A DNA stretch of 64,000 nucleotides from Cytophagales bacterium (GTDB lineage: Bacteria; Bacteroidota; Bacteroidia; Cytophagales; Microscillaceae). Both the position numbers and the translations under genes were made by a program. Positions 1 through 63,597 of the stretch are shown here, in pieces. The notes under the pieces were generated by a model that did no database searches, was not told the origin of the DNA, and worked only from the letters and a program-made list of their open reading frames with translations. Numbering within the stretch: the stretch's first letter is position 1; each line of letters starts with the position of its first letter. The stretch is from NCBI GenBank assembly GCA_031425615.1, contig JANPJR010000030.1, forward strand, positions 18,492 through 82,491, in the 5' to 3' direction.

Positions 1-1320
1 TCCGCTTGGAAAGTGTTTTTTGATAGGGCTTTGCAAGGCGAAAAGTTTTCAGTAGATTATGCTTTTACAGAAAATACTTCCGCAGATGTACCCAAAATAT
101 ACCTTAGTATTTATTTTAACCCAATTTTTGATGCCCAAAAACGCATTTCGGGTGTGGCAATTTTTGCACGTGATATTACACAAAGAAAAGAAAGAGAAAT
201 TGAATTTACAGAATTTGCCCAAAAACAAAATACACGCACACAACGCCTTGTAGAACATCAACGCATACAACTCACACAACTTAATGAACGATACCAAGAA
301 GAAAAAAAATACCTTGCCACAGAAATAGAAAAAACATCTTTGCTCTACCAAAAAAATCTAAAAGAAAATCGCTTGTGGCAACATACACCAATGGTAATGA
401 TGGCACTTTCCAAAAATTTTGATGTGGTTTTTTACAACCAAAATGCCAAAAATCTATATGATGATTGGCATTATTGTATGCAACCTGATTATCATTTGCC
501 TGATACATTTTCTACAAGGTATTTTTTCAAATTAAAAAGTTTTTTACAAAAAGCACTCAAAGGCGAAATTATTGAAAATAAGGTAATTTTCAAAAAAAAT
601 AAAGCAAATTATAAAACGAATAATCAAACAGACTACAAAAATCTGTACCCAAAAAGCAAATCGTATTCTATTTTTTATATCAATATCCAAAAAATAGATA
701 TTGAAGAAATGCCTTCTGCTTCGCTTTTGCTTTCTGCACAAGAAATTACCGCACAACTTCTGCCCTACCGCCAAAAATTCAAACAAAGACGCAAATTAGA
801 ACCAAAAGAAAACGTTAAAGTCTTGGAAACACAAGAAAACGTTAAAATCTTGGAAACACAAGAAAACGTTAAAGTTTTGGAAACACAAGAAAATAAAGTT
901 TTAGAAACACAAGAAAATATTGAGGTTTCAAATACAAAAAAGAACGTAAAAACACCTACATTGCATTTAGAAAATGGCACACTAAAAGGCACATTGAAAT
1001 TCTATATTTTTGCACGTGATTTGGCGGTAAGCAGTTATGATGAAGACATGAAAGAAATATTTAACCTATTTCATTTGTGTTTGCAACCTGATTATATGAT
1101 TGCAGACGTATTCCCAAACAAAAATTTCGCACAATGGGGTAGTATATTTAAAAGGGCATTGTTAGGTGAAAAAATAACCTTACAACAACGTTTATTGCAT
1201 AAAAATCCGCTCACAAAAAAACGTACTGTGTATTTGTTTGATGTTATTTTTACACCTATTATTACGGAAGACAACCAATGCAAAGAAGTGCAACTACATT
1301 TGCAACAAAAAATATATTAA
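1..1320 (+). CDS. PAS-domain sensor protein, C-terminal part (reading frame open to window start)
   Basis: ORF 13..1320 begins at a GTG and the frame has no stop back to base 1. The N-terminal region reads like the end of a PAS fold (GVAIFARDITQRKEREIE), with two further PAS-like segments containing QPDY. A 27-bp tandem repeat inside encodes (ENVKVLETQ)x4. Confidence 0.5.
   Translation, partial: SAWKVFFDRALQGEKFSVDYAFTENTSADVPKIYLSIYFNPIFDAQKRISGVAIFARDITQRKEREIEFTEFAQKQNTRTQRLVEHQRIQLTQLNERYQEEKKYLATEIEKTSLLYQKNLKENRLWQHTPMVMMALSKNFDVVFYNQNAKNLYDDWHYCMQPDYHLPDTFSTRYFFKLKSFLQKALKGEIIENKVIFKKNKANYKTNNQTDYKNLYPKSKSYSIFYINIQKIDIEEMPSASLLLSAQEITAQLLPYRQKFKQRRKLEPKENVKVLETQENVKILETQENVKVLETQENKVLETQENIEVSNTKKNVKTPTLHLENGTLKGTLKFYIFARDLAVSSYDEDMKEIFNLFHLCLQPDYMIADVFPNKNFAQWGSIFKRALLGEKITLQQRLLHKNPLTKKRTVYLFDVIFTPIITEDNQCKEVQLHLQQKIY
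808..918 (+). repeat. 27-bp tandem repeat x4 (encodes ENVKVLETQ) inside the PAS protein gene
   Basis: Direct reading: the unit gaaaacgttaaagtcttggaaacacaa repeats 3 times nearly perfectly, followed by one degenerate copy. Confidence 0.85.
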
Positions 1321-4117: not shown

Positions 4118-4168
4118 TTAAAAAAATACGGTCAGACCTTCGCAATGCTGGGTGCAGACCGTATTTTA
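4118..4168 (-). terminator. Rho-independent terminator downstream of the E2 gene (minus strand)
   Basis: Hairpin atacggtc...gaccgtat with a GC-containing 8-bp stem. On the minus strand it is followed by a T-run (plus-strand aaaaaaa before it). Confidence 0.5.
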
Positions 4169-4189
4169 TACACATATTTTTTAATTTTT

Positions 4190-8639: not shown

Positions 8640-8744
8640 TGAAAGTTATCAGTTGTCAGTAGCAAGTAATCAGTTTTTGAAGTTTTCCATTTTTACAAAA
8701 AACTAACAACTAAAAAAACTGATAACTGAAAAAATTGACAATTT

Positions 8745-12843: not shown

Positions 12844-12957
12844 AGTTTTAGCCCCAAAGGGAATTAATGCCTTTAATTGAGAAATTTGGAAATTTATTAC
12901 TGAAAAAACTGACAACTGAATTAACTAATTACTGAAAAAACTGATTACTGAATAAAC

Positions 12958-13338
12958 TTATTTATACACAATTACCTCCTCATGTGTAACATTAAGTTTA
13001 GTAAGTGCGGTTTGGTAAAATTCATATTCTTCCTGATTTTGATGGTCAAATACATCAGAAGATGTATCTGTATCAAGCACTTTTTTAAGCCAATATACTG
13101 CCTTTACACGATTTTTTTGATTTTCATCTTTTAGTTTTTCAAAAATATTGTGGCGAAATATATTAATATCCAAATCTCTTGCATAACCTATGATGTCTTT
13201 ATATTCTTCTGTGGAAAGCGGTGTTTCTTCACTTGTCAAATCTACAAGCAGTCTTTTCTCGTCATCTTGCAATTTGCCATCTGCTTTGGCACCAAGTAGC
13301 ATTAGACCAAAAACTGCTTGATTGTAATTGATTTCCAT
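12958..13338 (-). CDS. TerB-like (tellurite-resistance TerB / DjlA-N type) small protein
   Basis: VFGLMLLGAKADGKLQDDEKRLL fits the TerB-domain pattern (a.ADG.i...E...l). 126 aa. Confidence 0.45.
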   Translation of the reverse strand: MEINYNQAVFGLMLLGAKADGKLQDDEKRLLVDLTSEETPLSTEEYKDIIGYARDLDINIFRHNIFEKLKDENQKNRVKAVYWLKKVLDTDTSSDVFDHQNQEEYEFYQTALTKLNVTHEEVIVYK

Positions 13339-13759: not shown

Positions 13760-14917
13760 ATGCAAGCAGACATTTTAGAAAATCGCCAAGAAATCATTGA
13801 TGGTATCGCAGAAAGTACCAAAGATTTTGCAGAAAAACACATTCTTCCTTATGTCATGGAATGGGACGAATCACAAGCCTTTCCCGTAGAAACATTTAGA
13901 AAAATGGGGGAAATGGGACTTATGGGTATGATTGTGCCTACCGAATATGGCGGAAGTGGATTGGGGTATAGAGAATATGTAACAGGCATTGTAGAAATCT
14001 CAAAAATAGACCCTTCTATTGGCTTGTCTATGGCTGCACATAATTCACTTTGCACCAATCATATATTAATGTTTGGCAATGAAAGCCAAAAACAAAATTA
14101 TCTTCCAAAACTTGCTTCTGGCGAATGGATAGGTGCATGGGGACTTACTGAGCCAAATACAGGCTCTGATGCAGGCAATATGCGTACTGTCGCAGTAAAA
14201 GATGGCGAATATTGGATAATAAACGGAGCAAAAAATTTTATTACACATGGTAAATCAGGCAATGTAGCGGTGGTGATTGTGCGTACAGGCGAAGTAGGCG
14301 ATTCACATGGCATGACTGCTTTTATCATTGAAAAAGGTACAAAAGGTTTTACAAGTGGCAGAAAAGAAAATAAACTTGGTATGCGTGCTTCTGAAACTGC
14401 GGAATTGATTTTCCAAGATTGTCGCATACATGAAAGCCAAATGTTGGGCAAAGTAGGCGAAGGTTTTATACAATCTATGAAAATCCTTGATGGCGGGCGT
14501 ATTTCTATCGCAGCATTATCATTGGGTATTGCAAAAGGTGCCTACAATCATGCTTTGCAATATGCCAAAGAAAGACATCAATTTAATCAACCTATTGCCA
14601 AATTCCAAGCGATTGGTTTCAAATTGGCAGACATGGCTACTGAAATAGATGCGTCTGAATTGCTTATTTTGCGTGCTTGCGACCTTAAAGATGCCCACAA
14701 ACCTGTAACAAAAGAATCTGCTATGGCAAAATATTTTGCTTCTGAGGTTTGTGTAAGAGTTGCCAACGAAGCAGTACAGATATTTGGTGGTTATGGTTTT
14801 ACAAAGGATTTCCCAGTAGAAAAATATTATCGTGATTGCAAACTTTGTACGATTGGTGAAGGTACTTCTGAAATCCAAAAACTTGTAATTTCAAGAGATA
14901 TTTTAAAAAATAATTAG
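13760..14917 (+). CDS. Acyl-CoA dehydrogenase (short/butyryl-CoA type), paralog 1
   Basis: Full-length ACAD with GLMGMIVPTEYGGSG, FIIEKGTKGF, the catalytic-base region YRDCKLCTIGEGTSEIQKLVISR, and a FAD-binding pattern. About 60% similar to the 30503..31642 product. Confidence 0.9.
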   Translation: MQADILENRQEIIDGIAESTKDFAEKHILPYVMEWDESQAFPVETFRKMGEMGLMGMIVPTEYGGSGLGYREYVTGIVEISKIDPSIGLSMAAHNSLCTNHILMFGNESQKQNYLPKLASGEWIGAWGLTEPNTGSDAGNMRTVAVKDGEYWIINGAKNFITHGKSGNVAVVIVRTGEVGDSHGMTAFIIEKGTKGFTSGRKENKLGMRASETAELIFQDCRIHESQMLGKVGEGFIQSMKILDGGRISIAALSLGIAKGAYNHALQYAKERHQFNQPIAKFQAIGFKLADMATEIDASELLILRACDLKDAHKPVTKESAMAKYFASEVCVRVANEAVQIFGGYGFTKDFPVEKYYRDCKLCTIGEGTSEIQKLVISRDILKNN

Positions 14918-14944
14918 GAATTAGGAATTTTTTGTCATTCCGCT
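14913..14944. repeat. Heptamer repeat (AATTAGG)x2 + GAATTTTTTGTCATT overlapping the stop codon of the acyl-CoA DH gene
   Basis: Direct reading. The same element with one more heptamer occurs at 47781..47817. Confidence 0.8.
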
Positions 14945-15235
14945 TACTGCTACACATCTTTTTAGGATTTAAAAAAAAGCACTTTGAAACGATTTAAACA
15001 TAATATTTTTAATCACGTTTTTCAAAAAATTGGGTCTGTACCATAGTTTACGGAGGTCTGACCATGATTTTTTGAAAAATTACAAACTGCTAACAATGTT
15101 AAACACAATATTTATTTTAGTTTTTCAAAGAAACGTATTATTTTTTAGTAAAACCTATTTAAAAAAAGCCTTTTCCCTGCGTTTTGAATGTGTTTTTTTT
15201 AATCTGTATAGTAGTAAGCATTTTTTTATAAATAC
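14945..15235 (+). mobile_element. MITE-like non-autonomous element, copy 1 (~290 bp, ~16-bp terminal inverted repeats GCTTACTGCTACACAT ... CTGTATAGTAGTAAGC)
   Basis: About 93% identical over ~280 bp to the reverse complement of 63283..63573. The core is GGGTCTGTACCATAGTTTACGGAGGTCTGACC. The termini are inverted repeats of each other. No ORF of its own; the 78-aa track ORF inside is not credible. Confidence 0.55.
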
Positions 15236-15305
15236 CAAAAACATAAAAAAACACATCAAAAATTGATTTTGATGTGTTTTTTTATATATGAATGACCGCT
15301 AAAAA

Positions 15306-16376
15306 TTAGCGATTACGATTGAGCAATTCTTTTTTGAGTTTGTCAATGAGTTCAGGTTGGCTTACAGGTTTGAGTTCAGATTTTTCCATTTGGTTATCAA
15401 AAAACTCATAAAACTGTTTATCATAATACAAGAAATGGCGTTTATTACCTTTTTCGTCTAAGTGTAATTCTGTGCCTCTTACATTTTTGCTATAAACAAA
15501 CAATTTACCGCTATAATATTGATACAACAGTTTGTGTCCTTGTGTATCATTTTCAAGCGTTTTATCCAGTTTTCCATCAAAAATACCTAAATCATTGTCT
15601 TTTTTAGACATTTGATAAGTATTGTTGTTAGGATTTGTAGATACATTTACGTTGGCTTGTTGTTCGTTGCTTGTGTTGTTGTTGTCTTTTGTCCTTACTT
15701 TCATGTTTGAAAGCGTAATTGCTTTTTGATTGATTGAACGATTTACACTGCTTACTGAAATGTCCAATGGCTCAGTAATTATAGGTGTATTTTTTGCCCT
15801 AAAATTATTATTATTTATGGCAATGTTTTTCGTTTCCTCTTTTACAGTGTTAAAAATATTAGTTTCATTTACATTCGCTACTACATTTTTAACTGTATTT
15901 CCTATTGTATTTTTTGTTGTGTTTTCTATTGTTGTGTTTTCTGTTGGTGCGATTACAATATTTTCCTTTACTGTATTTTTACTACTTGTATTTTGTACAT
16001 TATTTGTTGTTTGTTGTATTTTTTGAGCAGATGAAAATATAAAATATTCTTTGTATTCATCAAAATACACAAGCATTGAAGTCATCACGCCAGCAATCAT
16101 AAGCGAACCTATAAGTGCAGTACGTGGCACATTGAATATCGTATTAGGAGATTCTACATCTATGGTGCTAAGGTGAGCTTTGAGTTCTTTTTTGCGTGCT
16201 TCTTGTGCCATGTCCCTAAGCGCTTCTTCCATTTGAACTTCTTCTTTGAGTTCAGGATTGGCGTTCATGAGGTCTTGAAAAGCAACACGCGCATCATCAG
16301 GAAGTGTATCATTGATGAAAGCATCTTTCAATTCTTCTTGGGACATTTGATTGTAGATTGATTTGTGATAATTCAT
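15306..16376 (-). CDS. Anti-sigma factor (single-pass membrane protein) cognate to the upstream ECF sigma
   Basis: Lies immediately downstream of the ECF sigma gene. ~75-aa cytoplasmic N-domain, one TM (ALIGSLMIAGVMTSMLVYF), an Asn/Thr-rich low-complexity periplasmic stretch, and a C-terminal domain. Confidence 0.55.
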   Translation of the reverse strand: MNYHKSIYNQMSQEELKDAFINDTLPDDARVAFQDLMNANPELKEEVQMEEALRDMAQEARKKELKAHLSTIDVESPNTIFNVPRTALIGSLMIAGVMTSMLVYFDEYKEYFIFSSAQKIQQTTNNVQNTSSKNTVKENIVIAPTENTTIENTTKNTIGNTVKNVVANVNETNIFNTVKEETKNIAINNNNFRAKNTPIITEPLDISVSSVNRSINQKAITLSNMKVRTKDNNNTSNEQQANVNVSTNPNNNTYQMSKKDNDLGIFDGKLDKTLENDTQGHKLLYQYYSGKLFVYSKNVRGTELHLDEKGNKRHFLYYDKQFYEFFDNQMEKSELKPVSQPELIDKLKKELLNRNR

Positions 16377-30359: not shown

Positions 30360-30502
30360 TTTGATTAAAATTAGTCCCAGCCCCCAAAGGGACAAAAGGT
30401 AGTAAAAAAAAAGTAAATAGTTGTCAGTAATCAGTTTTTTCCCAGTAAAATACAAAACTAAAAAAAACTGAAAAAACTGACAACTGAAAAAACTAAAAAA
30501 CC

Positions 30503-31642
30503 CTATTTTAACAAATCTCTTGCAATAACGATTTTTTGAATTTCGGAAGTGCCTTCATAGATTTGGGTAATTTTGGCATCACGCATCATACGTTCCACAT
30601 GAAACTCTTTCACATAACCATAACCACCATGCACTTGTACCGCTTCGGTTGTAACGTCCATTGCTACTTGTGAAGCAAATAATTTGCATTGTGCAGCAGC
30701 AGATACATAATCTTGGTGTGCATCTTTGAGTTTGGCAGCGTGTAATGTAAGCAACCTCGCACAATTAATATGCGTAAGCATATCTGCAAGTTTAAATTGA
30801 ATGGCTTGGTGTTCAGAGATAGGTTTTCCAAATGCTTTGCGTTCTTTGGAATACTTTACAGAAAGCTCGTAAGCACCAGACGCAATACCTAACGCTTGTG
30901 CAGCAATGCCAATACGACCACCATTGAGGGTTTCCATCGCAAATTTAAACCCAAAACCATCACCGCCAATACGGTTTGTTTTTGGTACTTTTACATCTGT
31001 AAACATCAGCGAATGTGTATCAGAGCTTCTAATACCCATTTTATCTTCTTTTTTTCCCACTACAAATCCCTCTGTACCTTTCTCCACAATCAGCACATTG
31101 ATACCTTTGTGTTTGAGTTCAGGATAAGTTTGTGCAATCACAAGATAAATAGAGGCATTTCCACCATTGGTTATCCAGTTTTTTGTGCCATTTAGGAGGT
31201 AATAATCGCCTTTATCTTCTGCGATTGTTTTTTGGGAAGTTGCATCAGAGCCTGCCTCTGGCTCAGAAAGACAAAACGCACCCAATACATCTCCTTTTGC
31301 AAGTGGTACAAGATATTTACGTTTTTGTTCTTCATTGCCATATTTTTCCAATCCCCAGCACACTAAGGAATTATTGACTGACATTGCCACCGCAGCAGAC
31401 GCATCTACTTTGGCTATTTCCTCTAATGCCAACACATAGGATACGGTGTCCATGCCACTTCCACCATATTCGGTAGGCACCATCATACCCATAAAGCCCA
31501 ATTCTGCCATTTTTTTGATAGAACTGAAAGGGAATTTTGCTTCGTTATCACGTTCAATAATCCCTTCCCAAAGATTATTTTGGGCAAAATCACGTGCTGC
31601 ATCACGCACAGCTATTTGTTCTTCTGTAAGAAAATCCGTCAT
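30503..31642 (-). CDS. Acyl-CoA dehydrogenase (short/butyryl-CoA type), paralog 2
   Basis: MGMMVPTEYGGSGMD, LIVEKGTEGF, MRDAKITQIYEGTSEIQKIVIAR. A paralog of 13760..14917. Confidence 0.9.
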   Translation of the reverse strand: MTDFLTEEQIAVRDAARDFAQNNLWEGIIERDNEAKFPFSSIKKMAELGFMGMMVPTEYGGSGMDTVSYVLALEEIAKVDASAAVAMSVNNSLVCWGLEKYGNEEQKRKYLVPLAKGDVLGAFCLSEPEAGSDATSQKTIAEDKGDYYLLNGTKNWITNGGNASIYLVIAQTYPELKHKGINVLIVEKGTEGFVVGKKEDKMGIRSSDTHSLMFTDVKVPKTNRIGGDGFGFKFAMETLNGGRIGIAAQALGIASGAYELSVKYSKERKAFGKPISEHQAIQFKLADMLTHINCARLLTLHAAKLKDAHQDYVSAAAQCKLFASQVAMDVTTEAVQVHGGYGYVKEFHVERMMRDAKITQIYEGTSEIQKIVIARDLLK

Positions 31643-31940: not shown

Positions 31941-32516
31941 TTAAATATGTTTATCTAAAATAGCAGAAATATTCCCAAAAATTTCATGTATTGTGCCAAT
32001 GCCTGATATAGATTCAAATTTATTTTGTGCTTGGTAATAATTGGCAACAGGGCGCGTTTTTGTTTCATATTCTTGCACACGTTGGCGTACAAGGTCTTCG
32101 TTTTGGTCGTCAGCCCTGCCTGATGTTTCGCCACGTTTGAGTATGCGTGTAGTCAATTCTTCATTATTTACTTCCAATGCAATCATGACCGAAATACTCA
32201 TATTACGTTGTTTGAGCATATTATCCAACGCTTGTGCTTGTACTTGTGTGCGTGGAAATCCATCAAAAATAAATCCTGTACTTTCAGGGTGTGCGTCTAT
32301 TTTGTTGGAAACCATGCCAATAAGCACATCATCAGGCACGAGATTACCTGCATTCATAAACCTTTTTGCTTCCAAACCAAGTTGCGTTTCTTGTGCAACT
32401 TCTGCTCTGAGTAGGTCGCCTGTAGATATTTGAATGAGTCCGTATTTTTTTACGATATTTTCGCTTTGCGTACCTTTTCCTGCGCCAGGAGGTCCAAATA
32501 AAACCAAATTTAGCAT
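31941..32516 (-). CDS. adk: Adenylate kinase (short type, no long LID insertion)
   Basis: P-loop LFGPPGAGKGTQ, the ISTGDLLRAEV NMP-binding region, and FDGFPRT. 191 aa. Confidence 0.9.
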   Translation of the reverse strand: MLNLVLFGPPGAGKGTQSENIVKKYGLIQISTGDLLRAEVAQETQLGLEAKRFMNAGNLVPDDVLIGMVSNKIDAHPESTGFIFDGFPRTQVQAQALDNMLKQRNMSISVMIALEVNNEELTTRILKRGETSGRADDQNEDLVRQRVQEYETKTRPVANYYQAQNKFESISGIGTIHEIFGNISAILDKHI

Positions 32517-32749: not shown

Positions 32750-33322
32750 TTATTCTGCTTCCAACACATTTACAATATTTTCAAAAACTTTTTCAGGTTC
32801 AGGCAATCCATCTATTTCAAAAAATTTACTTTGTTGTTTATAAAATTTTGATACTGTTTGTGTTTCATGATTATAAAGTCTGATGCGACCTTTGATAATG
32901 ATTTCGTTTTGGTCATCAATGCGGTTGTTAGTTTTGCCTCTTTTTAGTATGCGTTTTACGAGTTCTTCATCTGGCACTTGTAATGACAATACATGTGTTA
33001 TTTCAATATTTTGGGTACTAAATATTTTTTCCAACGTATTTAATTGTGTTTGATTACGTGGAAAACCATCAAAAATAAAGCCATTGCTTGCACTATTGGC
33101 AACAATCATATTCTCAATCATTTTAAAAATAATATCATCAGAAACCATTTTTCCCATTGCCAATGTATCTTTTATTTGTATGCCAATATGTGTTTGTTGG
33201 CTGATTTCTTTACGCAACAAATCGCCTGTAGAAATCTGTATAAGTCCATATTTTCCTATTAATTTCTCGCCTTGTGTGCCTTTTCCAGAGCCTGGCGCAC
33301 CAAATAAAATAATGTTTTTCAT
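32750..33322 (-). CDS. Adenylate kinase paralog (second tandem copy, short type)
   Basis: ATG at 33322 (MKNIILFGAPGSGKGTQ). The track ORF starts at a GTG at 33355. ISTGDLLRKEI, FDGFPRN. About 45% identical to the upstream adk. Confidence 0.85.
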   Translation of the reverse strand: MKNIILFGAPGSGKGTQGEKLIGKYGLIQISTGDLLRKEISQQTHIGIQIKDTLAMGKMVSDDIIFKMIENMIVANSASNGFIFDGFPRNQTQLNTLEKIFSTQNIEITHVLSLQVPDEELVKRILKRGKTNNRIDDQNEIIIKGRIRLYNHETQTVSKFYKQQSKFFEIDGLPEPEKVFENIVNVLEAE

Positions 33323-33582
33323 ATTAAAAAAATGATATGATGAATAAATTTTCACAAAAAAACAGATAAAAACTAAAATATAAAAGTTTTAAAGCAAATA
33401 ATTATGAAATAATTATAAAAACTATTGATATTTACCTTTTATCAAAAAAAATTTCCCTAATTTAACGTGTAATTTCTGTTACCTTTTTCTATTATTTTTT
33501 ATTTTTCAAAAAAATAAGCACTTTTGCATTTTTAAATAAAAAAAAGAAAAATCTATAATACCAAATCCATAATCTTATTTTT

Positions 33583-35949
33583 ATGTTCAGTTCTACAAAA
33601 AAACTCTTTTTATGCCTGTTGTTCCTATGTATAGGTGCACCAGCATTTGCCCAAGTATTGCGTTTGGGGCTTGTTAATAGTAATTATGCAGGTACAAACG
33701 GTTTGCATTTCAATCCTGCAAGCATCGCAGACAATCGTTACAGATTTTACATGGAAATCTTAAACGCTGGTTTTACTGCAAATAATAACCGTTATATTTT
33801 TGAAACAAAAAACAACTTTGAAGAGTGGAATGTGAAAGGCGATAGAGGCAAAGGCAGTTTGGGAAATGTTGGAGCCAATTTTAATATTCCTGTCATTAAT
33901 TTGATGTTTAAGGTTTCGCCAAAAGCATATTTTGGGCTTACAACACGCACACGCACCTATTTGAATGTGAATGGCATGTCCGAAAATTTTTTTAAATTAT
34001 TAAAAGAAGAAGGAAAATTTGCTAATTTTGATACCAATGCTAATTATTCTGGGAGTACAGGCAATGTTAATTTTAATAGTTGGCTTGAAATTGGAGTAAC
34101 TTATGGGCGTGAATTATTAAAAAAAGACAATCATTTTCTCAAAATTGGCGGTACTGTGAAATATCTCATGGGTGCAGGAAGTGCCAACTATACCCTCAAA
34201 AAATTGGATTACAGCATTGTTACACAAGCCACACAAAACGGTGGCACAGAGAAAGTAATGCGTATCAACAACATAGAAGGTAATATTTCGTATAGTAACA
34301 AGGGCGATTTTGAAGCATCTTCTGATATATTGGGCAATTCACAAGGCAGTGGCGTTGGCATTGATTTAGGAGCAGTATATGAATATCGCCCAAATCCTGA
34401 GAAATACACGTACAAAATGGACAACGAAATGCACGAAGACCGCAGAATGAACAAATACAAATATCGTTTGTCTGCTTCACTCATGGATTTAGGGTTTATT
34501 CGTTACAATACAGGCAATTCCCGTTCTTATAATACCAATATCCAAAATCGTATCCTTACACAATCTGACATTGAAAACGCACAAGACCCTGACAAAGTGA
34601 TAAGTGCATTGGGTATTTCTGCTAATGACTTTCAAAGTAAATATAATGCAGGTTTGCCTACTTCTTTGAATTTGAGTGCAGATTACAATTTTTATAAATA
34701 CTTGTTTCTCAATGCAACTTATATTCAAAACCTTAAAGGGAAATTCGCAAGAAGTGCAAGACAACAAACCGTTTTTGCCCTTACGCCACGTTTTGAGCGT
34801 AGTATGTTTGAGATTGCAATGCCTATCGTCCTATCCAATAATTTGAGTTCTTTGGATTTGGGATTGATGATTCGTTTGGATTTCTTTTATATTGGTTCTG
34901 ATAATCTTTCTGTATTATATAATCCTTCACGTGTGAGAGGTGTAGATTTTTATACAGGAATTTCTGTACCTATTCGTAGAGTAAAACGTCCTCGTGATAG
35001 AGATGGTGATGAAATATCAGATGGAATAGACCTTTGTAAAACAGAAAAAGGCACTTGGGAACTCAAAGGTTGCCCTGACCAAGATGGCGATGGCATTACT
35101 GACAAAGACGATAATTGCCCAACCGAAGCAGGGAAAGCAGAGTTTAAAGGTTGTCCTGACCAAGACAATGATGGTGTGATGGACAAAGAAGATGATTGCC
35201 CTACAATTGCAGGAAAACCTGAATTAAAAGGTTGCCCTGACACGGATAATGATGGCATCATGGACAAAGAAGACGATTGTCCAAGTGAAGCGGGCAAAAA
35301 AGAATTTAAAGGTTGTCCTGACACGGATAATGATGGCATCATGGACAAAGAGGACGAATGTCCAACAGTTGCAGGTATTGCACAATTCAAAGGTTGCCCT
35401 GATACTGATGGTGATGGCATCAAAGACAGCGAAGACGATTGCCCTACCATCGCAGGAAAACCCGAACTAAAAGGTTGCCCTGACAAAGATAATGATGGTG
35501 TAGCAGACAAAGACGACCAATGCCCTGATGTAGCAGGTTTGAAAGAGCTGAAAGGTTGCCCTGAAACCAAAAATAGCGAGCCTATTCTTACCGCAGAAGA
35601 AAAAGAAACCTTGAAAGAAGCTTTTGAAAATCTTGAATTTGAAACAGGCAAAGCAATTATTGCCCAAAAATCACTTTCAAGCCTCAAAGAACTCGCTGAA
35701 GTATTGAAAAAACGTGATAAATATAAACTGGAAATATCTGGACATACTGATAATCAAGGCATTGCAAATGCAAACCTCGCACTTAGCAAGCAACGAGCTG
35801 AAGCGGTAAAAGCATTTTTGGTAAAAGAAAAAATCCCTGCAAATAGACTCATAGCACAAGGTTTTGGACAAACTAAACCTGTTGCAGATAATAAAACTGC
35901 AGAAGGCAGACAGAAAAATCGTAGGGTAGAAATGAAAGTGATTAAGTAA
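33583..35949 (+). CDS. OmpA-family protein with N-terminal beta-barrel-like domain and thrombospondin type-3 (Ca-binding) repeats
   Basis: Signal peptide. Six to seven 27-aa repeats KGCPDxDxDGxxDKxDxCPT.AG with the DxDxDGxxD Ca-binding signature. C-terminal OmpA domain (ISGHTDNQGIANANLALSKQRAEAV...NRRVEM). Confidence 0.85.
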   Translation: MFSSTKKLFLCLLFLCIGAPAFAQVLRLGLVNSNYAGTNGLHFNPASIADNRYRFYMEILNAGFTANNNRYIFETKNNFEEWNVKGDRGKGSLGNVGANFNIPVINLMFKVSPKAYFGLTTRTRTYLNVNGMSENFFKLLKEEGKFANFDTNANYSGSTGNVNFNSWLEIGVTYGRELLKKDNHFLKIGGTVKYLMGAGSANYTLKKLDYSIVTQATQNGGTEKVMRINNIEGNISYSNKGDFEASSDILGNSQGSGVGIDLGAVYEYRPNPEKYTYKMDNEMHEDRRMNKYKYRLSASLMDLGFIRYNTGNSRSYNTNIQNRILTQSDIENAQDPDKVISALGISANDFQSKYNAGLPTSLNLSADYNFYKYLFLNATYIQNLKGKFARSARQQTVFALTPRFERSMFEIAMPIVLSNNLSSLDLGLMIRLDFFYIGSDNLSVLYNPSRVRGVDFYTGISVPIRRVKRPRDRDGDEISDGIDLCKTEKGTWELKGCPDQDGDGITDKDDNCPTEAGKAEFKGCPDQDNDGVMDKEDDCPTIAGKPELKGCPDTDNDGIMDKEDDCPSEAGKKEFKGCPDTDNDGIMDKEDECPTVAGIAQFKGCPDTDGDGIKDSEDDCPTIAGKPELKGCPDKDNDGVADKDDQCPDVAGLKELKGCPETKNSEPILTAEEKETLKEAFENLEFETGKAIIAQKSLSSLKELAEVLKKRDKYKLEISGHTDNQGIANANLALSKQRAEAVKAFLVKEKIPANRLIAQGFGQTKPVADNKTAEGRQKNRRVEMKVIK
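35066..35568 (+). repeat. 81-bp tandem repeats (about 6 copies) encoding the TSP3 repeats
   Basis: The DNA unit aaaggttgccctgac...ga(a/t)tt recurs in phase at 81-bp spacing. Confidence 0.8.
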
Positions 35950-36057: not shown

Positions 36058-36120
36058 CTAAAAAAATAGTTTTAAAACGAAAAAAATAGTTTCTAACTGA
36101 AAAAACTGATTACTGAAAAA

Positions 36121-37011
36121 TTATTTTCTAAATCTCTCCGCCACTACAAGCGTTTTACTGCCTGCAACATATTCATAAAAACCTTTCCCTGTTTTTACGC
36201 CCAAATGTCCAGCTTCTACCATATTAACCAAAAGCGGACAAGGGGCATATTTTTGATTGCCTAAACCATTATATAACACTTTTAAAATATTCAAACATAC
36301 GTCCAAACCCACAAAATCAGCTAATTGAAGTGGTCCCATAGGGTGTGCCATGCCAAGTTTCATGACAGTATCTATTTCTTCTACGCCAGCAACGCCCTCA
36401 AAAAGTGTGTAAAAAGCCTCGTTGAGCATAGGCATCAAGATACGATTAGACACAAAACCAGGATAATCATTTACCACAACAGGCACTTTACCAAGTTGCA
36501 CAGAAAGGTCAAAAATTTGTTGGGAGATGGCTTTATCTGTGGCATAACCATTAATAATTTCCACAAGTTTCATTACAGGCACAGGGTTAAAAAAGTGCAT
36601 ACCAACTACCTGCGTTGGACGTGTGGTAGCTGAGGCTATTTTAGTGATAGAAATAGACGAAGTATTGCTTGCCAAAATTGCATTTTTTGGTGCAAAAGCA
36701 TCTAATTGTTTAAAAATTTGAAGTTTTAAATCAATGTTTTCAGTGGCTGCTTCTACAATTAAATCTGCTTTTTCAACGCCTTTTTGCAAATCCGTAAAAG
36801 TAGTAATATTGTTTAATGTTTGCGTTTTGTGTTCTTCTGTAAGCGTACCTTTTGTAATTTGTCGGTCAAGGTTGCCTGCAATGGTTTTAAGGGCTTTTTC
36901 AAGACTTTCAACCTTAATATCAACCAATGATACCAAAAAACCATTTTGTGCAAATAAATGTGCAATACCATTGCCCATTGTACCTGAGCCTATTACAGTG
37001 ATGTTTTTCAT
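36121..37011 (-). CDS. hbd: 3-hydroxybutyryl-CoA / 3-hydroxyacyl-CoA dehydrogenase (NAD-binding)
   Basis: N-terminal ITVIGSGTMGNGIAH Rossmann motif. 3HCDH C-terminal domain. 296 aa, typical of Hbd. Confidence 0.9.
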   Translation of the reverse strand: MKNITVIGSGTMGNGIAHLFAQNGFLVSLVDIKVESLEKALKTIAGNLDRQITKGTLTEEHKTQTLNNITTFTDLQKGVEKADLIVEAATENIDLKLQIFKQLDAFAPKNAILASNTSSISITKIASATTRPTQVVGMHFFNPVPVMKLVEIINGYATDKAISQQIFDLSVQLGKVPVVVNDYPGFVSNRILMPMLNEAFYTLFEGVAGVEEIDTVMKLGMAHPMGPLQLADFVGLDVCLNILKVLYNGLGNQKYAPCPLLVNMVEAGHLGVKTGKGFYEYVAGSKTLVVAERFRK

Positions 37012-41665: not shown

Positions 41666-42007
41666 ATGAATGTAAAAGATTTCTTAAATGCACAACAAAA
41701 AAACATAGATGATCTGCTTACACAAGAGATGTCGCTGTTGATATTGGGTTATTTGAGCCAAAAAGATGAAGATTTTAAACAGTTTTTAGATTTTTTTTGG
41801 CAAGAAATTCACAAAAATACAACAGACTTAATCAAAAATGTACTTATACAATTACCAGAATATCAATACCTTGAAGCATATAGTAATGAACTACAAGATA
41901 ATGAGCAATATAATATATTGAAAAAAATCATTGCTGAAGCTGTTCAAATGCGTATTCAAGTGTCTAAATCTGTTGTAGAAGATTGGAGAAAACAAATAAA
42001 TGATTAG
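41666..42007 (+). CDS. Hypothetical small protein (113 aa)
   Basis: ORF with ATG. The stop lies within a 12-bp x3 tandem repeat. No domain recognised. Confidence 0.3.
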   Translation: MNVKDFLNAQQKNIDDLLTQEMSLLILGYLSQKDEDFKQFLDFFWQEIHKNTTDLIKNVLIQLPEYQYLEAYSNELQDNEQYNILKKIIAEAVQMRIQVSKSVVEDWRKQIND

Positions 42008-42033
42008 TTAAATGATTAGTTAAATGATTAGTT
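41998..42033 (+). repeat. 12-bp tandem repeat (AAATGATTAGTT)x3 spanning the stop codon of the 113-aa ORF
   Basis: Direct reading. Confidence 0.85.
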
Positions 42034-42246: not shown

Positions 42247-43275
42247 ATGTCTTTAAATAAACTCGCCCTAATCCGCTACAAAACCATTGATGAGTGTTTG
42301 CAAAATAGATATAGAAATTGGACATTAGAAGATTTGATGGACAAAGTTTCTGATGCAATTTATGAATATGAAGGGATAGATTCAGGCATTAGCAAACGCA
42401 CAATACAAGCTGATATTCAACTTATGCGAAGTGATAAACTTGGCTACAATGCACCAATTATCGTAAAAGAAAAGAAATATTATACCTATGAAGATAAAAA
42501 TTATAGCATTTCTAAAACGATATTCAATGACAAAAATATCGAAGTTATCAAAGAAAGTCTGGAAATTTTAAAACAATTTGGTGATTTTGCATTGTTTGAA
42601 GGTGTTGGAGATGCAATTTTGAAATTGGAAAATAAAATAAATAATCCACAAAATACTAAAAGAAAATTCATTCAGTTTGAACAAAACCAACAACTCAAAG
42701 GTTTGAATTTTTTGATGCCTTTGTATCAAATTATTGCCCAAAAGAAAACAATTAATTTGTCTTATCAATCATTCAAAGCACAATTTAAAGACAATCCGCC
42801 CAAAGATTTTATCATCTATCCATATCTGCTCAAAGAATACCGAAATCGCTGGTTTTTGATTGGCACAGAAAAAAACAGAACTGCTGTTGCAACTTTTGCA
42901 TTGGATAGAATTGTGAATTTTGAAATATTGCCACAAGAACATTTTAACGAAATAAACATAGATTTTGAGCATTATTATAGCAACTTGATTGGCGTTACAA
43001 AGTCAGAACAACAAGCAACCGAAAAAGTGGTCTTGCAAGTAGAAAAATCAACTATTTTGTATGTTTTAACAAAACCTTTGCACGCTTCACAAAAAATATT
43101 GCAAGAATTCCAAGACAGTACCATTATTTCCTTAGATGTGGTATTAAATTTTGAATTAGAAAAAGAAATTTTGGGTTTTGGGGAAGGTATTAAAGTGCTT
43201 TCACCCGATTTATTGGTACAAAATATGAAAAGAAGGCTCAAAAAAGCATCTAAATTTTATGAAAATAACGAATAA
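42247..43275 (+). CDS. HTH + WYL-domain transcriptional regulator
   Basis: N-terminal DeoR/HTH_11-like region (LNKLALIRYKTIDECLQNR...WTLEDLMDKV). Central YPYLLKEYRNRWFLIGTEKNRTAVATFALDRIVNFEIL matches the WYL-domain core (W.L.g......r.frldRI). A C-terminal extension follows. Confidence 0.7.
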   Translation: MSLNKLALIRYKTIDECLQNRYRNWTLEDLMDKVSDAIYEYEGIDSGISKRTIQADIQLMRSDKLGYNAPIIVKEKKYYTYEDKNYSISKTIFNDKNIEVIKESLEILKQFGDFALFEGVGDAILKLENKINNPQNTKRKFIQFEQNQQLKGLNFLMPLYQIIAQKKTINLSYQSFKAQFKDNPPKDFIIYPYLLKEYRNRWFLIGTEKNRTAVATFALDRIVNFEILPQEHFNEINIDFEHYYSNLIGVTKSEQQATEKVVLQVEKSTILYVLTKPLHASQKILQEFQDSTIISLDVVLNFELEKEILGFGEGIKVLSPDLLVQNMKRRLKKASKFYENNE

Positions 43276-44329
43276 CTTTTTTTTGTACTTCCTGCTGATA
43301 GGCTTTTTAGGATTAGGTGGTTGTACAAAAAAAAAAGAAAACCTACCTATTTCATTCTACTTTTGGCAAACTACTTATAAAAAAAATACGCCAAACCCAC
43401 AAGATTTTTTGAAAAAATTAAATAAAAATACAAACAAAAATACCAATAAAAATCCGACACTTTTTGTGCGGTTATTTGATGTGGATTTTAACCCAGAAAG
43501 CGGGTCTGCTGAACCTGTTGGTATTTTGCAAGACGATATTTTGAAAAACATAAGTTTTTTACCCAAAAAAACACACATTGCACCTGTTGTATTTATCACA
43601 AACCAAACAATGCACGCATTGAAAAAAGATGATGTAGCAATTTTGGCAAATAGAATTTGGAAAAAAGTTGTTTTTTTGGTAAAAGATTTTACATTTTCTA
43701 CTTTTCAAATTGATTGTGATTGGAACGAAAGCACAAAAGCAAATTTCTTTCATTTTCTCAACACACTTCAAACACTTTCCAACAAACAATCCATAGAAAT
43801 TTCGGTAACAATTAGACTTCACCAAATAAAATTTTATAAAAAAACAGGCATTCCACCTGTCAAAATTGGAACACTCATGGCGTATAATATGGGCAATGTG
43901 CGTGCATTAGACACCGAAAATTCTATTTTGGACACCAAAATTTTGCCCAATTATCTTGCAGGTTTGCCCAATTATCCTTTAACATTGGATTTAGCTTTGC
44001 CACTTTTTTCATGGATTGTGGTGCAAAGGCAAGGAAAAGTAATAAAATTATTACCCCAAGAAGATTTTAATTTTAAAAAACATAAATTCCTTAAAGAAAA
44101 TTTTTATGAAGTAACTGAAAGTCAATATGTAAATGGATATTATTTGTATAAAAATGATATATTAAAATTAGAAACTACTTCCAAAGAAAATTTGGCTAAT
44201 GTCGCAGAAATATTGCAACAATACACTCCAAAAAATAGATTTAAAAAGGTTGTATTTTACCACTTTGAAAAAAATATTTTAGAAAAATTTGATATAAAAT
44301 TTTTGCAAGACATTAGTAGTAAATTTTAA
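43259..44329 (+). CDS. Hypothetical lipoprotein (356 aa); its start overlaps the 3' end of the WYL regulator gene
   Basis: ATG at 43259 overlaps the regulator's last 17 nt. Lipobox LGLGGCTKK. No domain recognised. Confidence 0.5.
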   Translation: MKITNNFFLYFLLIGFLGLGGCTKKKENLPISFYFWQTTYKKNTPNPQDFLKKLNKNTNKNTNKNPTLFVRLFDVDFNPESGSAEPVGILQDDILKNISFLPKKTHIAPVVFITNQTMHALKKDDVAILANRIWKKVVFLVKDFTFSTFQIDCDWNESTKANFFHFLNTLQTLSNKQSIEISVTIRLHQIKFYKKTGIPPVKIGTLMAYNMGNVRALDTENSILDTKILPNYLAGLPNYPLTLDLALPLFSWIVVQRQGKVIKLLPQEDFNFKKHKFLKENFYEVTESQYVNGYYLYKNDILKLETTSKENLANVAEILQQYTPKNRFKKVVFYHFEKNILEKFDIKFLQDISSKF

Positions 44330-45015: not shown

Positions 45016-45057
45016 ATTATGAATTATGAATTATGAATTATGAATTATGAATTATTT
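45016..45057. repeat. Heptamer tandem repeat (ATTATGA)x5 plus a partial copy, starting the base after the trpF stop codon
   Basis: Direct reading. It is followed by an AT-only 9-bp palindrome, attatttta-attat-taaaataat. Confidence 0.85.
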
Positions 45058-47774: not shown

Positions 47775-47780
47775 TTTTTG

Positions 47781-47817
47781 GAATTAGGAATTAGGAATTA
47801 GGAATTTTTTTGTCATT
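47781..47817. repeat. Heptamer repeat (GAATTAG)x3 + GAATTTTTTTGTCATT immediately upstream of pyrF
   Basis: The same element as 14913..14944, with a different copy number. Confidence 0.8.
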
Positions 47818-47903
47818 ATTGTTAGAAATTTGGTTATTTATATGCGTAAAAATTGATAGATAACTAAAAAAACTGACAACTGAAAAAAACTGACAACTTT
47901 ACA

Positions 47904-50090: not shown

Positions 50091-50765
50091 TTAAAATTTG
50101 ATTTTTCCTGTGATAGAATTTACAAATTCCTCCAAACTTTTATTGTTTTTTAGAAATGGTTTTAAGGTTTTCATTTTTCGCATTTCATCTATGATTTTAT
50201 CTTTTTCTTTTTCTTTATTCACAATACCATTTTTTGATATTTTTTTTAATTCATGGTTCAATGTCCTTTTTGGGTCTGCGGATTTTGTTGTATTTTTTCC
50301 GAATTTTGCCAAAATCCATGCTTCTATTTCCTCAATCGCTATCGCATATAGCAGTTCATCTGCATAATTATTTTCAAGCCATTCATTTATAAAGTTTATG
50401 ACTTGATTTCGTAATTCTGTGGGGTAAGCATCGTTATTTTTTTCAGGTTTTTGAAAATCAAAATCTTGTTGGTCTATTTCCGCAGTATCCAAATGAATAA
50501 CCATATAATTTTGGTCATCTATGAAAAAAAACTTATCAAAATATGGTCTTGCGCCATTTTCATTTTTCATACACGCCTTTTTTACGCCTTGTAATGTACC
50601 TATTGTAGTTTCATTTGAATTTTCAGGGTTATTTTTATCTGTTTCGTCTGTTTGATTTTCAGGTTTTACCTGAATAATGTCGCTTTTATCTATCTTGCAA
50701 GCCTGCAAAATACCTGCAATTACTTCTTGGTCGCTTTTTCCTTCTGCAATAATGCCTACACGCAT
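50091..50765 (-). CDS. Small Toprim-like protein (DUF4276/RloB-like) partnered with the upstream ATPase
   Basis: N-terminal MRVGIIAEGKSDQEVI (E-G-x-x-D as in Toprim/OLD-family nucleases and DUF4276). Later acidic motifs (HLDTAEID, AIEEIEAWILA). Starts 17 bp after the ATPase stop. Confidence 0.5.
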   Translation of the reverse strand: MRVGIIAEGKSDQEVIAGILQACKIDKSDIIQVKPENQTDETDKNNPENSNETTIGTLQGVKKACMKNENGARPYFDKFFFIDDQNYMVIHLDTAEIDQQDFDFQKPEKNNDAYPTELRNQVINFINEWLENNYADELLYAIAIEEIEAWILAKFGKNTTKSADPKRTLNHELKKISKNGIVNKEKEKDKIIDEMRKMKTLKPFLKNNKSLEEFVNSITGKIKF

Positions 50766-50784
50766 AATTTTTTCTTTTTAAAGT

Positions 50785-51987
50785 TTAAAAATTTTTAGAA
50801 ATTGCCCCTAAAAAACCCCTTGTCCAAAGCTCTGAAAGTTTATATTTTTCGCCCAATTCATTTGTTTGGTTTGGTTTTATTTTGATGCGTTTGGTTTTGG
50901 TATGCCCATATTGGTTGCGTTTTACCTCAAATAAGCGAATTTCATCATCCAAAAGATTTAATCCATCAAGTATTGCAGGATTGTAGGTAGTAACCAATAT
51001 TTGTTTATCGTTTTCTTTGGCAAGTTTGCAGATTTCAGTCATAAGTTTGCGACAAAGATGCGGATTAAGACAGGATTCTATGTTGTCAATGGCAAAAAAC
51101 GAAGGTGTTTTGTGGCTTATCATCATGGTAAGATAAAAAAGCAGGTGTAAAATACCCTCGTTGGCGTTTTCAGATACAAAAACCAAATTTTTATCTTTGG
51201 GCATAAATTTATCCTTGAAATACAACAAAGATTTATTAAAATTTAGTTTGTGTCCCTCCAATTTTAATGTATCTTCTCCATCAACCAAAAAATCCTCAAA
51301 CCATTCCACAAAATAACTATAACTTTTGAGTTTTTCGGTTTCTTCTGGGGTTAAATTGGCTATCATTTCATCAAGATTTTCCCCAAAAAGCCCTTTTTGT
51401 GAATATGAAAAATTGCCTAATCCCCTAAGTGCTTGCGTATTGAGGGTGTAAAGGGCGTAATTGATAAGATTTTTAGCTATATTTTTTTCTTTTTCTTTAT
51501 TTTTTTTTACTATTTCAACAATATAATTCGCAAATCCTTTGTTCATTGCATCGTCATCTTTATTATTTTGTAATTTAAAAAGCATTTTTTCTAAAATATC
51601 ATTTTCTTGGGCAGAAATTTTTAAATTTTCACCCCAATAACTTTTGATGTATTCTAATTCGCTTGGTGTTGAAGTGCAATAAACTATTTTATTGTCTATT
51701 TTCAGGGTAATATCCACTGTATTTTTATTATCTTGATTTTTCTCATTCCCCTCATTTTCTTCAAACTGATTTACCATTAAAATAGGCTTTGTAACCCTAA
51801 TATTATTATTATGGAGAATATCACCATCAACATGGTCATATTTTTTTGAAACACTTGCAAAAGCCACCGCCTCCAAGATATTAGATTTTCCACAACCATT
51901 TTCACCAATAAACACATTCACACGCCCCAACGCAATGGTGTCACCAGCAATAGATTTGAAATTTTTGATGTGGATTTCTTCAATCAT
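50785..51987 (-). CDS. ABC-type AAA_21/AAA_15-family ATPase (SMC-like, OLD/AbiL-type N-terminal ATPase)
   Basis: IKNFKSIAGDTIALGRVNVFIGENGCGKSNILEAVAF (Walker A). Walker B/D-loop FAIDNIESCLNP. QILVTTYNPAILD resembles the TTHSP motif of this family. 400 aa. Confidence 0.8.
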   Translation of the reverse strand: MIEEIHIKNFKSIAGDTIALGRVNVFIGENGCGKSNILEAVAFASVSKKYDHVDGDILHNNNIRVTKPILMVNQFEENEGNEKNQDNKNTVDITLKIDNKIVYCTSTPSELEYIKSYWGENLKISAQENDILEKMLFKLQNNKDDDAMNKGFANYIVEIVKKNKEKEKNIAKNLINYALYTLNTQALRGLGNFSYSQKGLFGENLDEMIANLTPEETEKLKSYSYFVEWFEDFLVDGEDTLKLEGHKLNFNKSLLYFKDKFMPKDKNLVFVSENANEGILHLLFYLTMMISHKTPSFFAIDNIESCLNPHLCRKLMTEICKLAKENDKQILVTTYNPAILDGLNLLDDEIRLFEVKRNQYGHTKTKRIKIKPNQTNELGEKYKLSELWTRGFLGAISKNF

Positions 51988-60948: not shown

Positions 60949-61317
60949 TTGATAGTTAAAAAGATAGTATTTGTTTTGTTGTTGTTTTTTCAAAAAAACC
61001 TTTTTATAAAATTATAAGTTCAATCAAACATTGGCTAATGGTTGAAATAGCATTTTTTTAACAAAAAGAACACCATAAAACCAAAAGAAATATTGTATTC
61101 AATGTTGTTCTAAGTTTGTAATTTTTTTCAAAACTTTGATTTTTAATGTTTTTTTAGAAAAAAACCACTCATTCTATCGTTTTCTGTGTTAAAAATACAA
61201 ATTGATGTGAATTTATAAAAACTGACAACTTAAAAACTGATAACTGACAACTTGGGTTAATTTATTTTCATTTTATTTAAAAAAAGTATATTTTTGCTTT
61301 TTAATTACAAAAAAATT

Positions 61318-63282: not shown

Positions 63283-63573
63283 GTTTTTATAAAAATTTCC
63301 TCACTACTATACAGATTTTTAAAAAATACATTCAAAACACAGGAAAAAGGCTTTTTTTGAATATTTTTTACTAAAAAATAATACGTTTCTTTGAAAAACT
63401 AAAACAAATATGGTGTTTAACATTGTTACCAGTTTGTAATTTTTCAAAAAAATCAGGGTCAGACCTCCGTAAACTACGATACAGCCCCAATTTTTCGAAA
63501 AATGTTATTATTGTGTTTAAAGCGTTTCAAAGTGCTTTTTTTAAAAATTCTGAAAAAATGTATAGTAGTAAGC
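63283..63573 (-). mobile_element. MITE-like non-autonomous element, copy 2 (inverted relative to copy 1)
   Basis: Its reverse complement aligns with 14945..15235 at ~93% identity, including both terminal inverted repeats (CCTCACTACTATACAG ... ATGTATAGTAGTAAGC). Confidence 0.55.
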
Positions 63574-63597
63574 TAATCTATAATCCATAATCTCTTT

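Follow-up and report, generated by a model that had tools for sequence, protein, structure and literature searches.

Repetitive extragenic palindromes (REPs), such as those of Escherichia coli and Pseudomonas, and the REP-associated tyrosine transposases (RAYTs) linked to such repeats have been studied almost entirely in Proteobacteria so far. A lineage found mostly in Bacteroidetes is TnpA_Y1 subclass 2.6, which corresponds to Bertels Group 5: its members are ~179 amino acids long, carry the motifs NH[LIV]H, WQ, and YIH[QN]NP, average 1.8 copies per genome, and are bordered by secondary structures of an atypical kind with weaker hairpins that are devoid of a GT[AG]G foot and have copies elsewhere in the genome (PMC6006769). 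Table S1 of the same study lists a Cytophaga hutchinsonii REP that contains GGTCTG, as well as, under BbalA01, an entry of subclass 2.6, a composite hairpin of 122 nt (PMC6006769), and the 16-mers that flank Group 5 RAYTs were found to be moderately abundant (PMC5581495). Here, we analyze a stretch of 64,000 nt from a Cytophagales bacterium (contig JANPJR010000030.1; the whole stretch is referred to below as the window), which contains two inverted copies of a ~280-nt element, each with a REP-like hairpin:

14942 to 15220, plus strand: copy 1 of the composite element of family a (~280 nt), in the order terminal repeat, arm, REP hairpin, arm, terminal repeat
63298 to 63573, minus strand: copy 2 of the composite element (family a)

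The original prediction, made from the nucleotide sequence, had taken this repeat for a novel element resembling a miniature inverted-repeat transposable element (MITE). However, the only part of it that is conserved across genomes is a hairpin that flanks RAYT genes, and this places the element in the known REP/RAYT system rather than in a new class. We conclude with good confidence that the core of the element is the cognate REP of a Cytophagales RAYT. The element as a whole is a nonautonomous composite, similar to a REP or to a bacterial interspersed mosaic element (BIME), that is probably moved in trans, by a RAYT or possibly by a DDE transposase. Although REP/RAYT systems are a known kind, neither this REP family nor its composites are described in PMC6006769.

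A covarying hairpin dispersed between genes in four genomes

A scan of one genome per species with the exact 20-mer TAGTTTACGGAGGTCTGACC gave 26 matches on 25 contigs from three Cytophagales/Bacteroidetes metagenome-assembled genomes (MAGs; RDZP01, RDXZ01, and JAAFIN01), with many of the matches sitting at contig ends. Alignment of these matches showed that only the ~70-nt palindromic core of the window element is common to the other genomes, and a hidden Markov model of the full-length element matched 25 loci only over its positions ~87 to 171. Using an nhmmer model of the core, we found 43 nonoverlapping copies in ~235 kb, window included, and the REP core recurs in four genomes. Almost every copy is extragenic (38 of 39 REP copies), and the gaps that harbor them are convergent, divergent, and tandem alike. 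Exact-core scans of the Joint Genome Institute (JGI) metagenomes and of IMG/VR returned zero matches and hence neither extra copies nor a link to viruses.

The window itself holds three REP copies in its 64 kb, one in each copy of the element and a solo REP:

15014 to 15088, plus strand: extended REP unit of copy 1 (nhmmer E = 1.3e-19; single-stranded DNA fold of -13.5 kcal/mol, z = -3.9)
15033 to 15063, plus strand: REP core type 1 of copy 1, GGTCTGTACCATAGTTTACGGAGGTCTGACC
63431 to 63506, minus strand: extended REP unit of copy 2, with its core at 63457 to 63487 (nhmmer E = 1.4e-18; single-stranded DNA fold of -9.7 kcal/mol, z = -2.0)
4118 to 4170, minus strand: solo REP of apical type 2, with its core at 4130 to 4160 (GGTCTGCACCCAGCATTGCGAAGGTCTGACC); third, diverged nhmmer match in the window

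In copy 1, an A/T-rich outer stem (TTTTTCAAAAAAT/ATTTTTTGAAAAA) surrounds the REP core and is followed by a conserved 3' flank, GAAAAATTAC. The core stem is built from GGTC/GACC, a T·T mismatch, a G-C pair, a bulged T, and ACC/GGT, and it carries a variable apical insert. The GGTCTG half-sites that had been pointed out in the original prediction are real, and they turn out to be the conserved part. In copy 2 the 5' foot of the REP is mutated (GGGCTGTATCG), which makes its hairpin weaker, so that it resembles a decaying copy. The solo REP lies between the co-oriented genes for a 2-oxoacid dehydrogenase E2 and for OsmC and has its own covarying outer stem, AAAATAC/GTATTTT, together with a T-run; its apical type resembles that of the REPs flanking a RAYT gene at locus L027. 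Three apical variants were distinguished:

Apical type 1, GTAGTTTACGGA: both window copies and most MAG copies
Apical type 2, (G/C)AGCA..GCGAA: the solo copy of the window and the L027 copies
Apical type 3, a 3-nt loop: L028 and L025

Across 22 distinct copies, the central 31 nt are nearly invariant and read GGTCTG(Y)ACC, apical insert, (R)GGTCTGACC, and the three bases on either side of this center change in step (CGC/GCG, CAA/TTG, TTT/AAA, AGT/ACT, and TAC/GTA). Covariance analysis was performed with a model consisting of the outer stem, GGTC/GACC, the T·T mismatch, G-C, a bulged Y, ACC/GGT, and a small apical hairpin. In the 22 copies, 90.9% of the cells of this model are paired, compared with 34 to 46% in slid controls, and we counted 50 double-sided changes versus 18.7 in shuffles, with none of 500 shuffles reaching the observed value. 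Outer-stem pairs occur as three to four pair types; the foot never varies. In agreement with this model, ViennaRNA with DNA parameters folds the three window REPs and the RAYT-flanking copies into the same stem with mismatch and bulge.

Two features of canonical systems are absent from the window element. The hairpin foot reads GGTCTG instead of the 5' GT[AG]G guide, and GTAG is found only inside the apical insert of type 1, types 2 and 3 being devoid of it. Furthermore, the element contains one REP and no inverted REP doublet with a short spacer, the hallmark of REP doublets forming hairpins (REPINs), and thus is not a canonical REPIN. Such doublets are present in a second composite family (family b, see below) and in the RAYT flanks of L027, L030, and L034.

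Linkage of the hairpin to RAYT genes

At locus L025, a REP core lies 17 nt upstream of the ATG of a 197-amino-acid open reading frame (ORF; 112 to 705, minus strand), and an inverted core lies just past its stop codon. The encoded protein matches the NCBIfam profile REP_Tyr_transpos with E = 6.7e-11 over profile positions 9 to 146 of 146, and the Pfam profile Y1_Tnp with E = 4e-4. It has more than 3,000 homologs; the named ones among the best 120 are mostly from Cytophagales, and several carry the JGI annotation RayT. Genomic context was taken for six homologs from other genomes (L027, L028, L029, L030, L033, and L034), including Bernardetia litoralis DSM 6794 (CP003345; L029, gene Fleli_3567) and Roseivirga (L033). 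Hairpins of the form GGTC[TG]G.ACC...GGTC[TA]GACC are found on both sides of the gene in L027, L028, L029, L030, and L033, often as inverted doublets or arrays, and L034 has an inverted hairpin doublet upstream of the RAYT gene only. A REP-type hairpin thus adjoins the ~197-amino-acid Y1/HUH gene in seven of seven related genomes (L025, L027 to L030, L033, and L034).

In Roseivirga, the mismatch position is still mismatched (T·T replaced by G·A). Dispersed REP copies retain ~15 nt of RAYT-proximal flank, GAAAAATTAC, as found upstream of the L027 RAYT gene. On the protein side, the PNHFH, WQ, and YIHQNP motifs are invariant in 13 homologs (H54, H56, Y129-I-H-Q-N-P, and W146) and fit subclass 2.6 (Group 5). 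A family profile compared with PDB had its best match in E. coli TnpA_REP (4ER8), at the Tyr motif; phmmer with a single RAYT gave only a weak IS200-like match, 4ER8 being reached with the family profile. The loci examined contained no second copy of the RAYT-like gene, and in the literature there is typically one RAYT gene per REP type. The RAYT linkage and the invariant foot with its mismatch and bulge together point to recognition of DNA by a protein.

Two bounded copies of a nonautonomous element in the window

The window repeat is a real, bounded, noncoding, and nonautonomous element. The inverted match between its two copies, first aligned by eye, was recovered by MAFFT, by a repeat search, by blastn (86.5% identity over 297 nt, E = 1e-94), and by global alignment of 14942 to 15220 (plus strand) with 63298 to 63573 (minus strand), which gave 245 matches, 28 mismatches, and 9 gap columns. 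The identity of ~93% that had been proposed for the full length holds only for the best 131 nt; over the whole element, identity is 89.7% without gaps and 86.9% with gaps. In the repeat search, the copies appear as three collinear inverted blocks with lengths of 131, 70, and 43 nt and identities of 93, 87, and 81%, respectively. The internal ORFs differ between the copies (78 versus 42 amino acids) and are not conserved. Folding of the whole of copy 1 gave -56.6 kcal/mol (z = -3.7).

Both copies start 25 nt past a stop codon and lie between convergent neighbors. Copy 1 is located between an acyl-CoA dehydrogenase gene, at whose stop codon this distance is measured, and a 356-amino-acid ORF without a Pfam match, while copy 2 follows the stop codon of a gene for a leucine-rich repeat (LRR) protein and is bordered on its other side by a 119-amino-acid ORF. 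Outside the element ends, similarity between the copies is gone within ~20 nt. Together, the sharp boundaries and the unrelated flanking genes show that the copies are not a segmental duplication. None of the 54 window ORFs matched a Pfam transposase family and tblastn of the window found no RAYT, in line with the nonautonomous nature that had been ascribed to the element.

The ends of both copies carry terminal inverted repeats, which had been predicted at a length of ~16 bp and measure ~15 nt:

14942 to 14956, plus strand: left terminal inverted repeat of copy 1, GCTTACTGCTACACA, two mismatches to GCTTACTACTATACA
15205 to 15219, minus strand: right terminal inverted repeat of copy 1, reading GCTTACTACTATACA on that strand, zero mismatches
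63559 to 63573, minus strand: left terminal inverted repeat of copy 2, GCTTACTACTATACA, zero mismatches
63299 to 63313, plus strand: right terminal inverted repeat of copy 2, reading CCTCACTACTATACA on that strand, two mismatches
Family-a element-end sequence: CTTACTACTATACA

The 15-mer GCTTACTACTATACA occurs at all four element ends and at one further site of the window; these five matches at three or fewer mismatches compare with 1.1 expected, and no shuffle reached five. The inverted symmetry of the ends runs on, with an indel, to ~40 to 48 nt. No target-site duplication was found at either window copy.

Exact-protein searches with the genes beside both copies returned only short Logan contigs (SRR20217183; L026, L031, and L032), which encode window-identical proteins and stop inside the element, at 15047, 15124, and 63381. 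The latter two breaks are fully accounted for by a 39-nt stretch that is identical between the window copies (k = 31), and they are therefore no proof that more copies exist. For the break at 15047 this stretch offers no explanation, but strain variation or low coverage could be the cause. Family-a repeats thus fragment assemblies of the source organism.

A possible degenerate remnant was also noted:

61077 to 61133, minus strand: 57 nt with 77 to 79% identity to the stretch immediately 3' of the REP (TTTTGAAAAAAATTACAAAC...)

Located in the divergent promoter region of an AcrB-type gene, this segment is without a REP core. As a third copy it is too weak to count, and nhmmer does not recover the 57-nt segment.

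Composite shells around the REP

The REP core sits in at least three families of composite shells with different terminal repeats. Elements with the architecture of the window type (family a) are also present in another genome, JAAFIN (L003, L006, and L024). They share 65% identity with the window copies overall and 85 to 95% over the REP, and the terminal 8-mer ACTATACA is conserved between them. Family b, from RDZP, comprises at least 11 copies of ~270 nt with 93 to 97% identity; it has perfect 18-nt terminal repeats (ACGTGAGTTCGGGATAAT), two inverted REPs in a REPIN-like arrangement, and no consistent flanking duplication. Family c, again from JAAFIN, is ~135 nt long, with ends TTAGGAAYGAAAAT... 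and one central REP.

Duplicated flanks were found in some of these elements. Three of four family-c copies have an identical TWA on both sides, and a family-c copy sits within the family-a copy of L006, for which the intact L003 copy serves as an empty-site comparison: a single TTA at the empty (paralogous) site is matched by TTA on both sides of the filled one. In family a, the target-site duplication that is missing from the window copies is also missing from L006, whereas L003 is bordered on both sides by a perfect direct repeat of 9 bp, CAATTTGAT, for which we estimate a chance of ~1e-3 when positional slack and five copies are allowed for.

The cognate insertion sequence (IS) that the original prediction had suggested looking for did not appear: all-against-all blastn of the loci revealed no repeat longer than 300 nt except coding paralogs or orthologs and no candidate IS, and neither the window nor ~250 kb of related loci contained an IS or transposase whose ends match. 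The terminal repeats of the three shells were likewise absent from the surroundings of the RAYT genes, so that the shells are not deletion derivatives of the RAYT locus. The only trace of a REP-less shell is a solitary, uninformative family-c-like end in L018.

Two further arrangements were seen. At L002 (2912 to 3166), three REP units form a direct tandem with a 90-nt period, joined to a family-b right end. In Bernardetia (L030), a sequence located ~200 nt downstream of the RAYT gene, ACGTGAACTCGGGATTAA, agrees with the family-b terminal repeat ACGTGAGTTCGGGATAAT at 14 of 18 positions and may represent a related shell in another genus.

Proposed mobilization of the composite element

We propose that the functional heart of the element is the ~70-nt imperfect hairpin with its invariant foot, GGTC-T-G-(Y)-ACC ... 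GGT-C-T-GACC. A RAYT encoded elsewhere in the genome would recognize the folded hairpin on single-stranded DNA, cut beside it, and then rejoin the DNA, and such cutting and rejoining would spread the REP and any attached sequence through intergenic DNA. In the window, the REP sits in a larger palindromic shell bounded by terminal inverted repeats of ~15 nt, which gives a BIME- or MITE-like composite. We infer that the source genome encodes such a RAYT and that the entire 280-nt unit may be moved by this enzyme rather than by a DDE transposase working on the terminal repeats.

A number of observations weigh against this proposal. The window itself is without a RAYT, its element has one REP instead of an inverted doublet, and good terminal inverted repeats are present on all three shells. 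The TWA repeats and TTA empty site of family c and the 9-bp repeat of L003 are signatures of DDE rather than of HUH enzymes, and conservation of the end 8-mer ACTATACA at 65% overall identity suggests that the ends are under constraint. The profile scores of the L025 RAYT are under the curated cutoffs (42 bits versus 80 for NCBIfam and 20.9 versus 23 for Pfam). We know of no biochemical data for any subclass 2.6 protein.

These points lead to the question of whether the composite is a classical MITE, i.e., an internally deleted IS that a DDE transposase moves via its terminal inverted repeats, with the REP as a passenger or as a later RAYT-mediated insertion. Such a scenario concerns only the mover of the composite and is compatible with the core being a REP. 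It would agree with the ~15-nt terminal repeats at all four window ends, with the retention of the termini ACTATACA/TGTATAGT between the window and JAAFIN copies despite their divergence, and with the flanking repeats of L003 and family c; we take the CT...TATACA termini with 9-bp duplications to resemble IS4-family (IS50-like) ends and the TWA duplications to resemble, presumably, IS5/Harbinger-type elements. However, target-site duplications are absent from the window copies and L006, family b combines perfect 18-nt terminal repeats with no consistent duplication, the window and ~250 kb of related loci yielded neither a repeat of more than 300 nt nor a transposase whose ends match, and the scenario leaves unexplained why the same near-central REP occurs in three shells with unrelated terminal repeats. 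We therefore consider a DDE-driven MITE possible, yet doubtful. The RAYT model accounts for the shared core, the doublets, and the duplication-free state of most copies, and the DDE-MITE model accounts for the terminal, TWA, and 9-bp repeats; both may be true at once, with the REP as cargo of MITEs or as an insertion into their foldback loops. It is thus tempting to speculate, albeit tentatively, that these are hybrid elements movable by both HUH and DDE transposases, or that RAYT-driven REP insertion favors the single-stranded apical loop of MITE foldbacks. If true, either case would amount to an interaction of two nonautonomous element types that has not been described before.

Alternatively, the hairpin with its T-run could be a host-selected structured RNA or terminator that ends or stabilizes upstream transcripts, or it could define a small RNA family, with mobility being incidental. 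Both copies and the solo REP follow a stop codon at a short distance and share the orientation of the upstream gene, A- and T-runs accompany the hairpin on both strands, and the stem covaries, a pattern that a DNA hairpin explains equally well. In E. coli, REPs are known to influence termination and the stability of mRNAs, and a side effect of this sort, as terminator or mRNA stabilizer, is a plausible prediction here. As the primary function, however, this is improbable: Rfam gave no match at gathering thresholds and only noise up to E = 10, a simple terminator scan makes no call at the REP sites, copy 1 is followed by a separate and better terminator-like hairpin (15241 to 15287), REPs are spread equally over divergent, tandem, and convergent gaps across the genomes, and the mismatched, bulged, invariant foot and the RAYT linkage argue for DNA recognition by a protein. 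The structured small RNA that the original prediction had offered as its alternative thus gained no support. Segmental duplication, or similarity that arose by chance between AT-rich intergenic stretches, could be imagined for a repeat with two full-length copies only in a genome of 32% G+C, but this explanation is refuted by the blastn E value of 1e-94, the sharp boundaries between unrelated flanking genes, the homologous elements in another genome, and the core in four genomes, and we give it next to no credence.

Comparison with related systems

Having weighed these alternatives, we return to the reading of the window element as a RAYT-mobilized REP composite. Its closest match is with the subclass 2.6 REPtrons, with which it shares the protein signature (NH.H, WQ, and YIH[QN]NP in ~180 to 200 amino acids; PMC6006769) and a gene flanked by imperfect hairpins that are without a GT[AG]G foot and have copies elsewhere. 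It differs from them in that the present REP family, with two direct GGTCTG.ACC feet, a T·T mismatch and bulge, and three apical types, is not listed; in that the HuH motif has F (NHFH) where PMC6006769 gives [LIV]; and in that embedding in terminal-repeat shells is not described in PMC6006769. The REP/BIME system of E. coli with TnpA_REP (4ER8) and the REPINs of Pseudomonas (PMC3116915) are similar in consisting of many dispersed extragenic imperfect palindromes, in forming inverted doublets (here in family b and in the RAYT flanks of L027, L030, and L034) and mosaic composites with other motifs, and in having a RAYT gene flanked by its own REPs. Unlike those systems, the present foot is without a 5' GTAG guide, the RAYT belongs to a different subclass, and the shells have terminal inverted repeats, in places with flanking direct repeats; the single REP of the window element is a further difference from the Pseudomonas REPINs.

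The Correia/NEMIS elements of Neisseria and the RUP elements of Streptococcus pneumoniae are comparable as noncoding, intergenic MITEs of 130 to 280 nt with terminal inverted repeats and long hairpins, and bacterial MITEs also form multicopy families, as family b does with its 93 to 97% identity. In contrast to such MITEs, no cognate IS was found here in the loci searched, the window copies are without a target-site duplication, and cross-genome conservation is restricted to the internal REP and does not include the termini. Finally, IS200/IS605 and palindrome-associated transposable elements share with our system the Y1/HUH chemistry, imperfect hairpins with unpaired bases, and the absence of target-site duplication. 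In contrast to IS200/IS605, however, the present RAYT-like gene is not in a multicopy IS and has no tnpB, and the hairpin is central in the element, not subterminal.

Nothing known is overturned by these results, which add an ordinary, previously unlisted REP/RAYT member from an understudied phylum. The window and its relatives provide a concrete REP for subclass 2.6, with a defined foot containing a mismatch and a bulge, three apical variants, and a covarying outer stem, and they show this REP inside several composite shells, in which it appears to travel. For annotation, it matters that the repeats break short-read assemblies of Cytophagales MAGs and could pass for novel MITEs or small RNAs. 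They could also guide the choice of substrate for a first biochemical test of a subclass 2.6 RAYT.

Heptamer arrays and other features of the window

Each copy of the element has a short heptamer array as a neighbor, which is not shown to be part of the element:

14912 to 14929, plus strand: (AATTAGG) x2.6 array, which overlaps the stop codon of the acyl-CoA dehydrogenase gene and lies 13 nt upstream of copy 1
63574 to 63592, minus strand: GGATTAT-like array x2.7, abutting the left end of copy 2

The original prediction had read this arrangement as a hint of a target preference for such repeats. Yet a period-7 array is present within 250 nt of 8 of 40 REPs compared with ~5 expected under uniform placement, and since REPs and arrays are both confined to intergenic DNA, the expected co-occurrence is higher still; the proposed preference was accordingly dropped. 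Period-7 arrays are common in these genomes, often against stop codons, with AATTAGG as the commonest type, as it is among the heptamers of the related MAG loci. At L021 and L019, period-7 arrays flank REP elements as inverted arrays. In the window, short tandem arrays at or near stop codons are located at 45016 to 45055, 14912 to 14929, 41997 to 42033, 47780 to 47806, and 63574 to 63592; among the stop-codon arrays are (ATTATGA) x5.7, directly after the TAG of a PRA isomerase gene, (TAAATGATTAGT) x3, and (GGAATTA) x3.9. A second array family with units of 7 to 9 nt, of the type AACTGAnAACTGA, was found at 8697 to 8734, 12896 to 12962, 30454 to 30501, 36060 to 36121, 47862 to 47898, and 61216 to 61252, mostly immediately downstream of the stop codons of minus-strand genes.

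The terminator-like hairpin at 15241 to 15287 is A/T-rich, pairs perfectly over 20 bp, and has a T-run on either side (bidirectional); it is separate from the element and lies between copy 1 and the convergent gene at 15306 to 16376. The only gathering-level Rfam match in the window is a tRNA gene at 2417 to 2490. Two possible defense-type gene pairs were noted: an AAA_21/AAA_15 ATPase gene (50785 to 51987) with an adjacent 224-amino-acid ORF without a Pfam match (pair at 50091 to 51987), and a WYL/WCX-domain protein gene (42247 to 43275) overlapping a 356-amino-acid ORF without a Pfam match (pair at 42247 to 44329). The paralogous acyl-CoA dehydrogenase genes at 13760 to 14917 and 30503 to 31642 share 70 to 86% nucleotide identity in patches, and two adenylate kinase genes at 31941 to 32516 and 32750 to 33355 are adjacent paralogs. 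At least five tandem 81-nt (27-amino-acid) repeats at 35035 to 35537, in the gene at 33583 to 35949, correspond to thrombospondin type 3 repeats of a DUF5723/OmpA protein.

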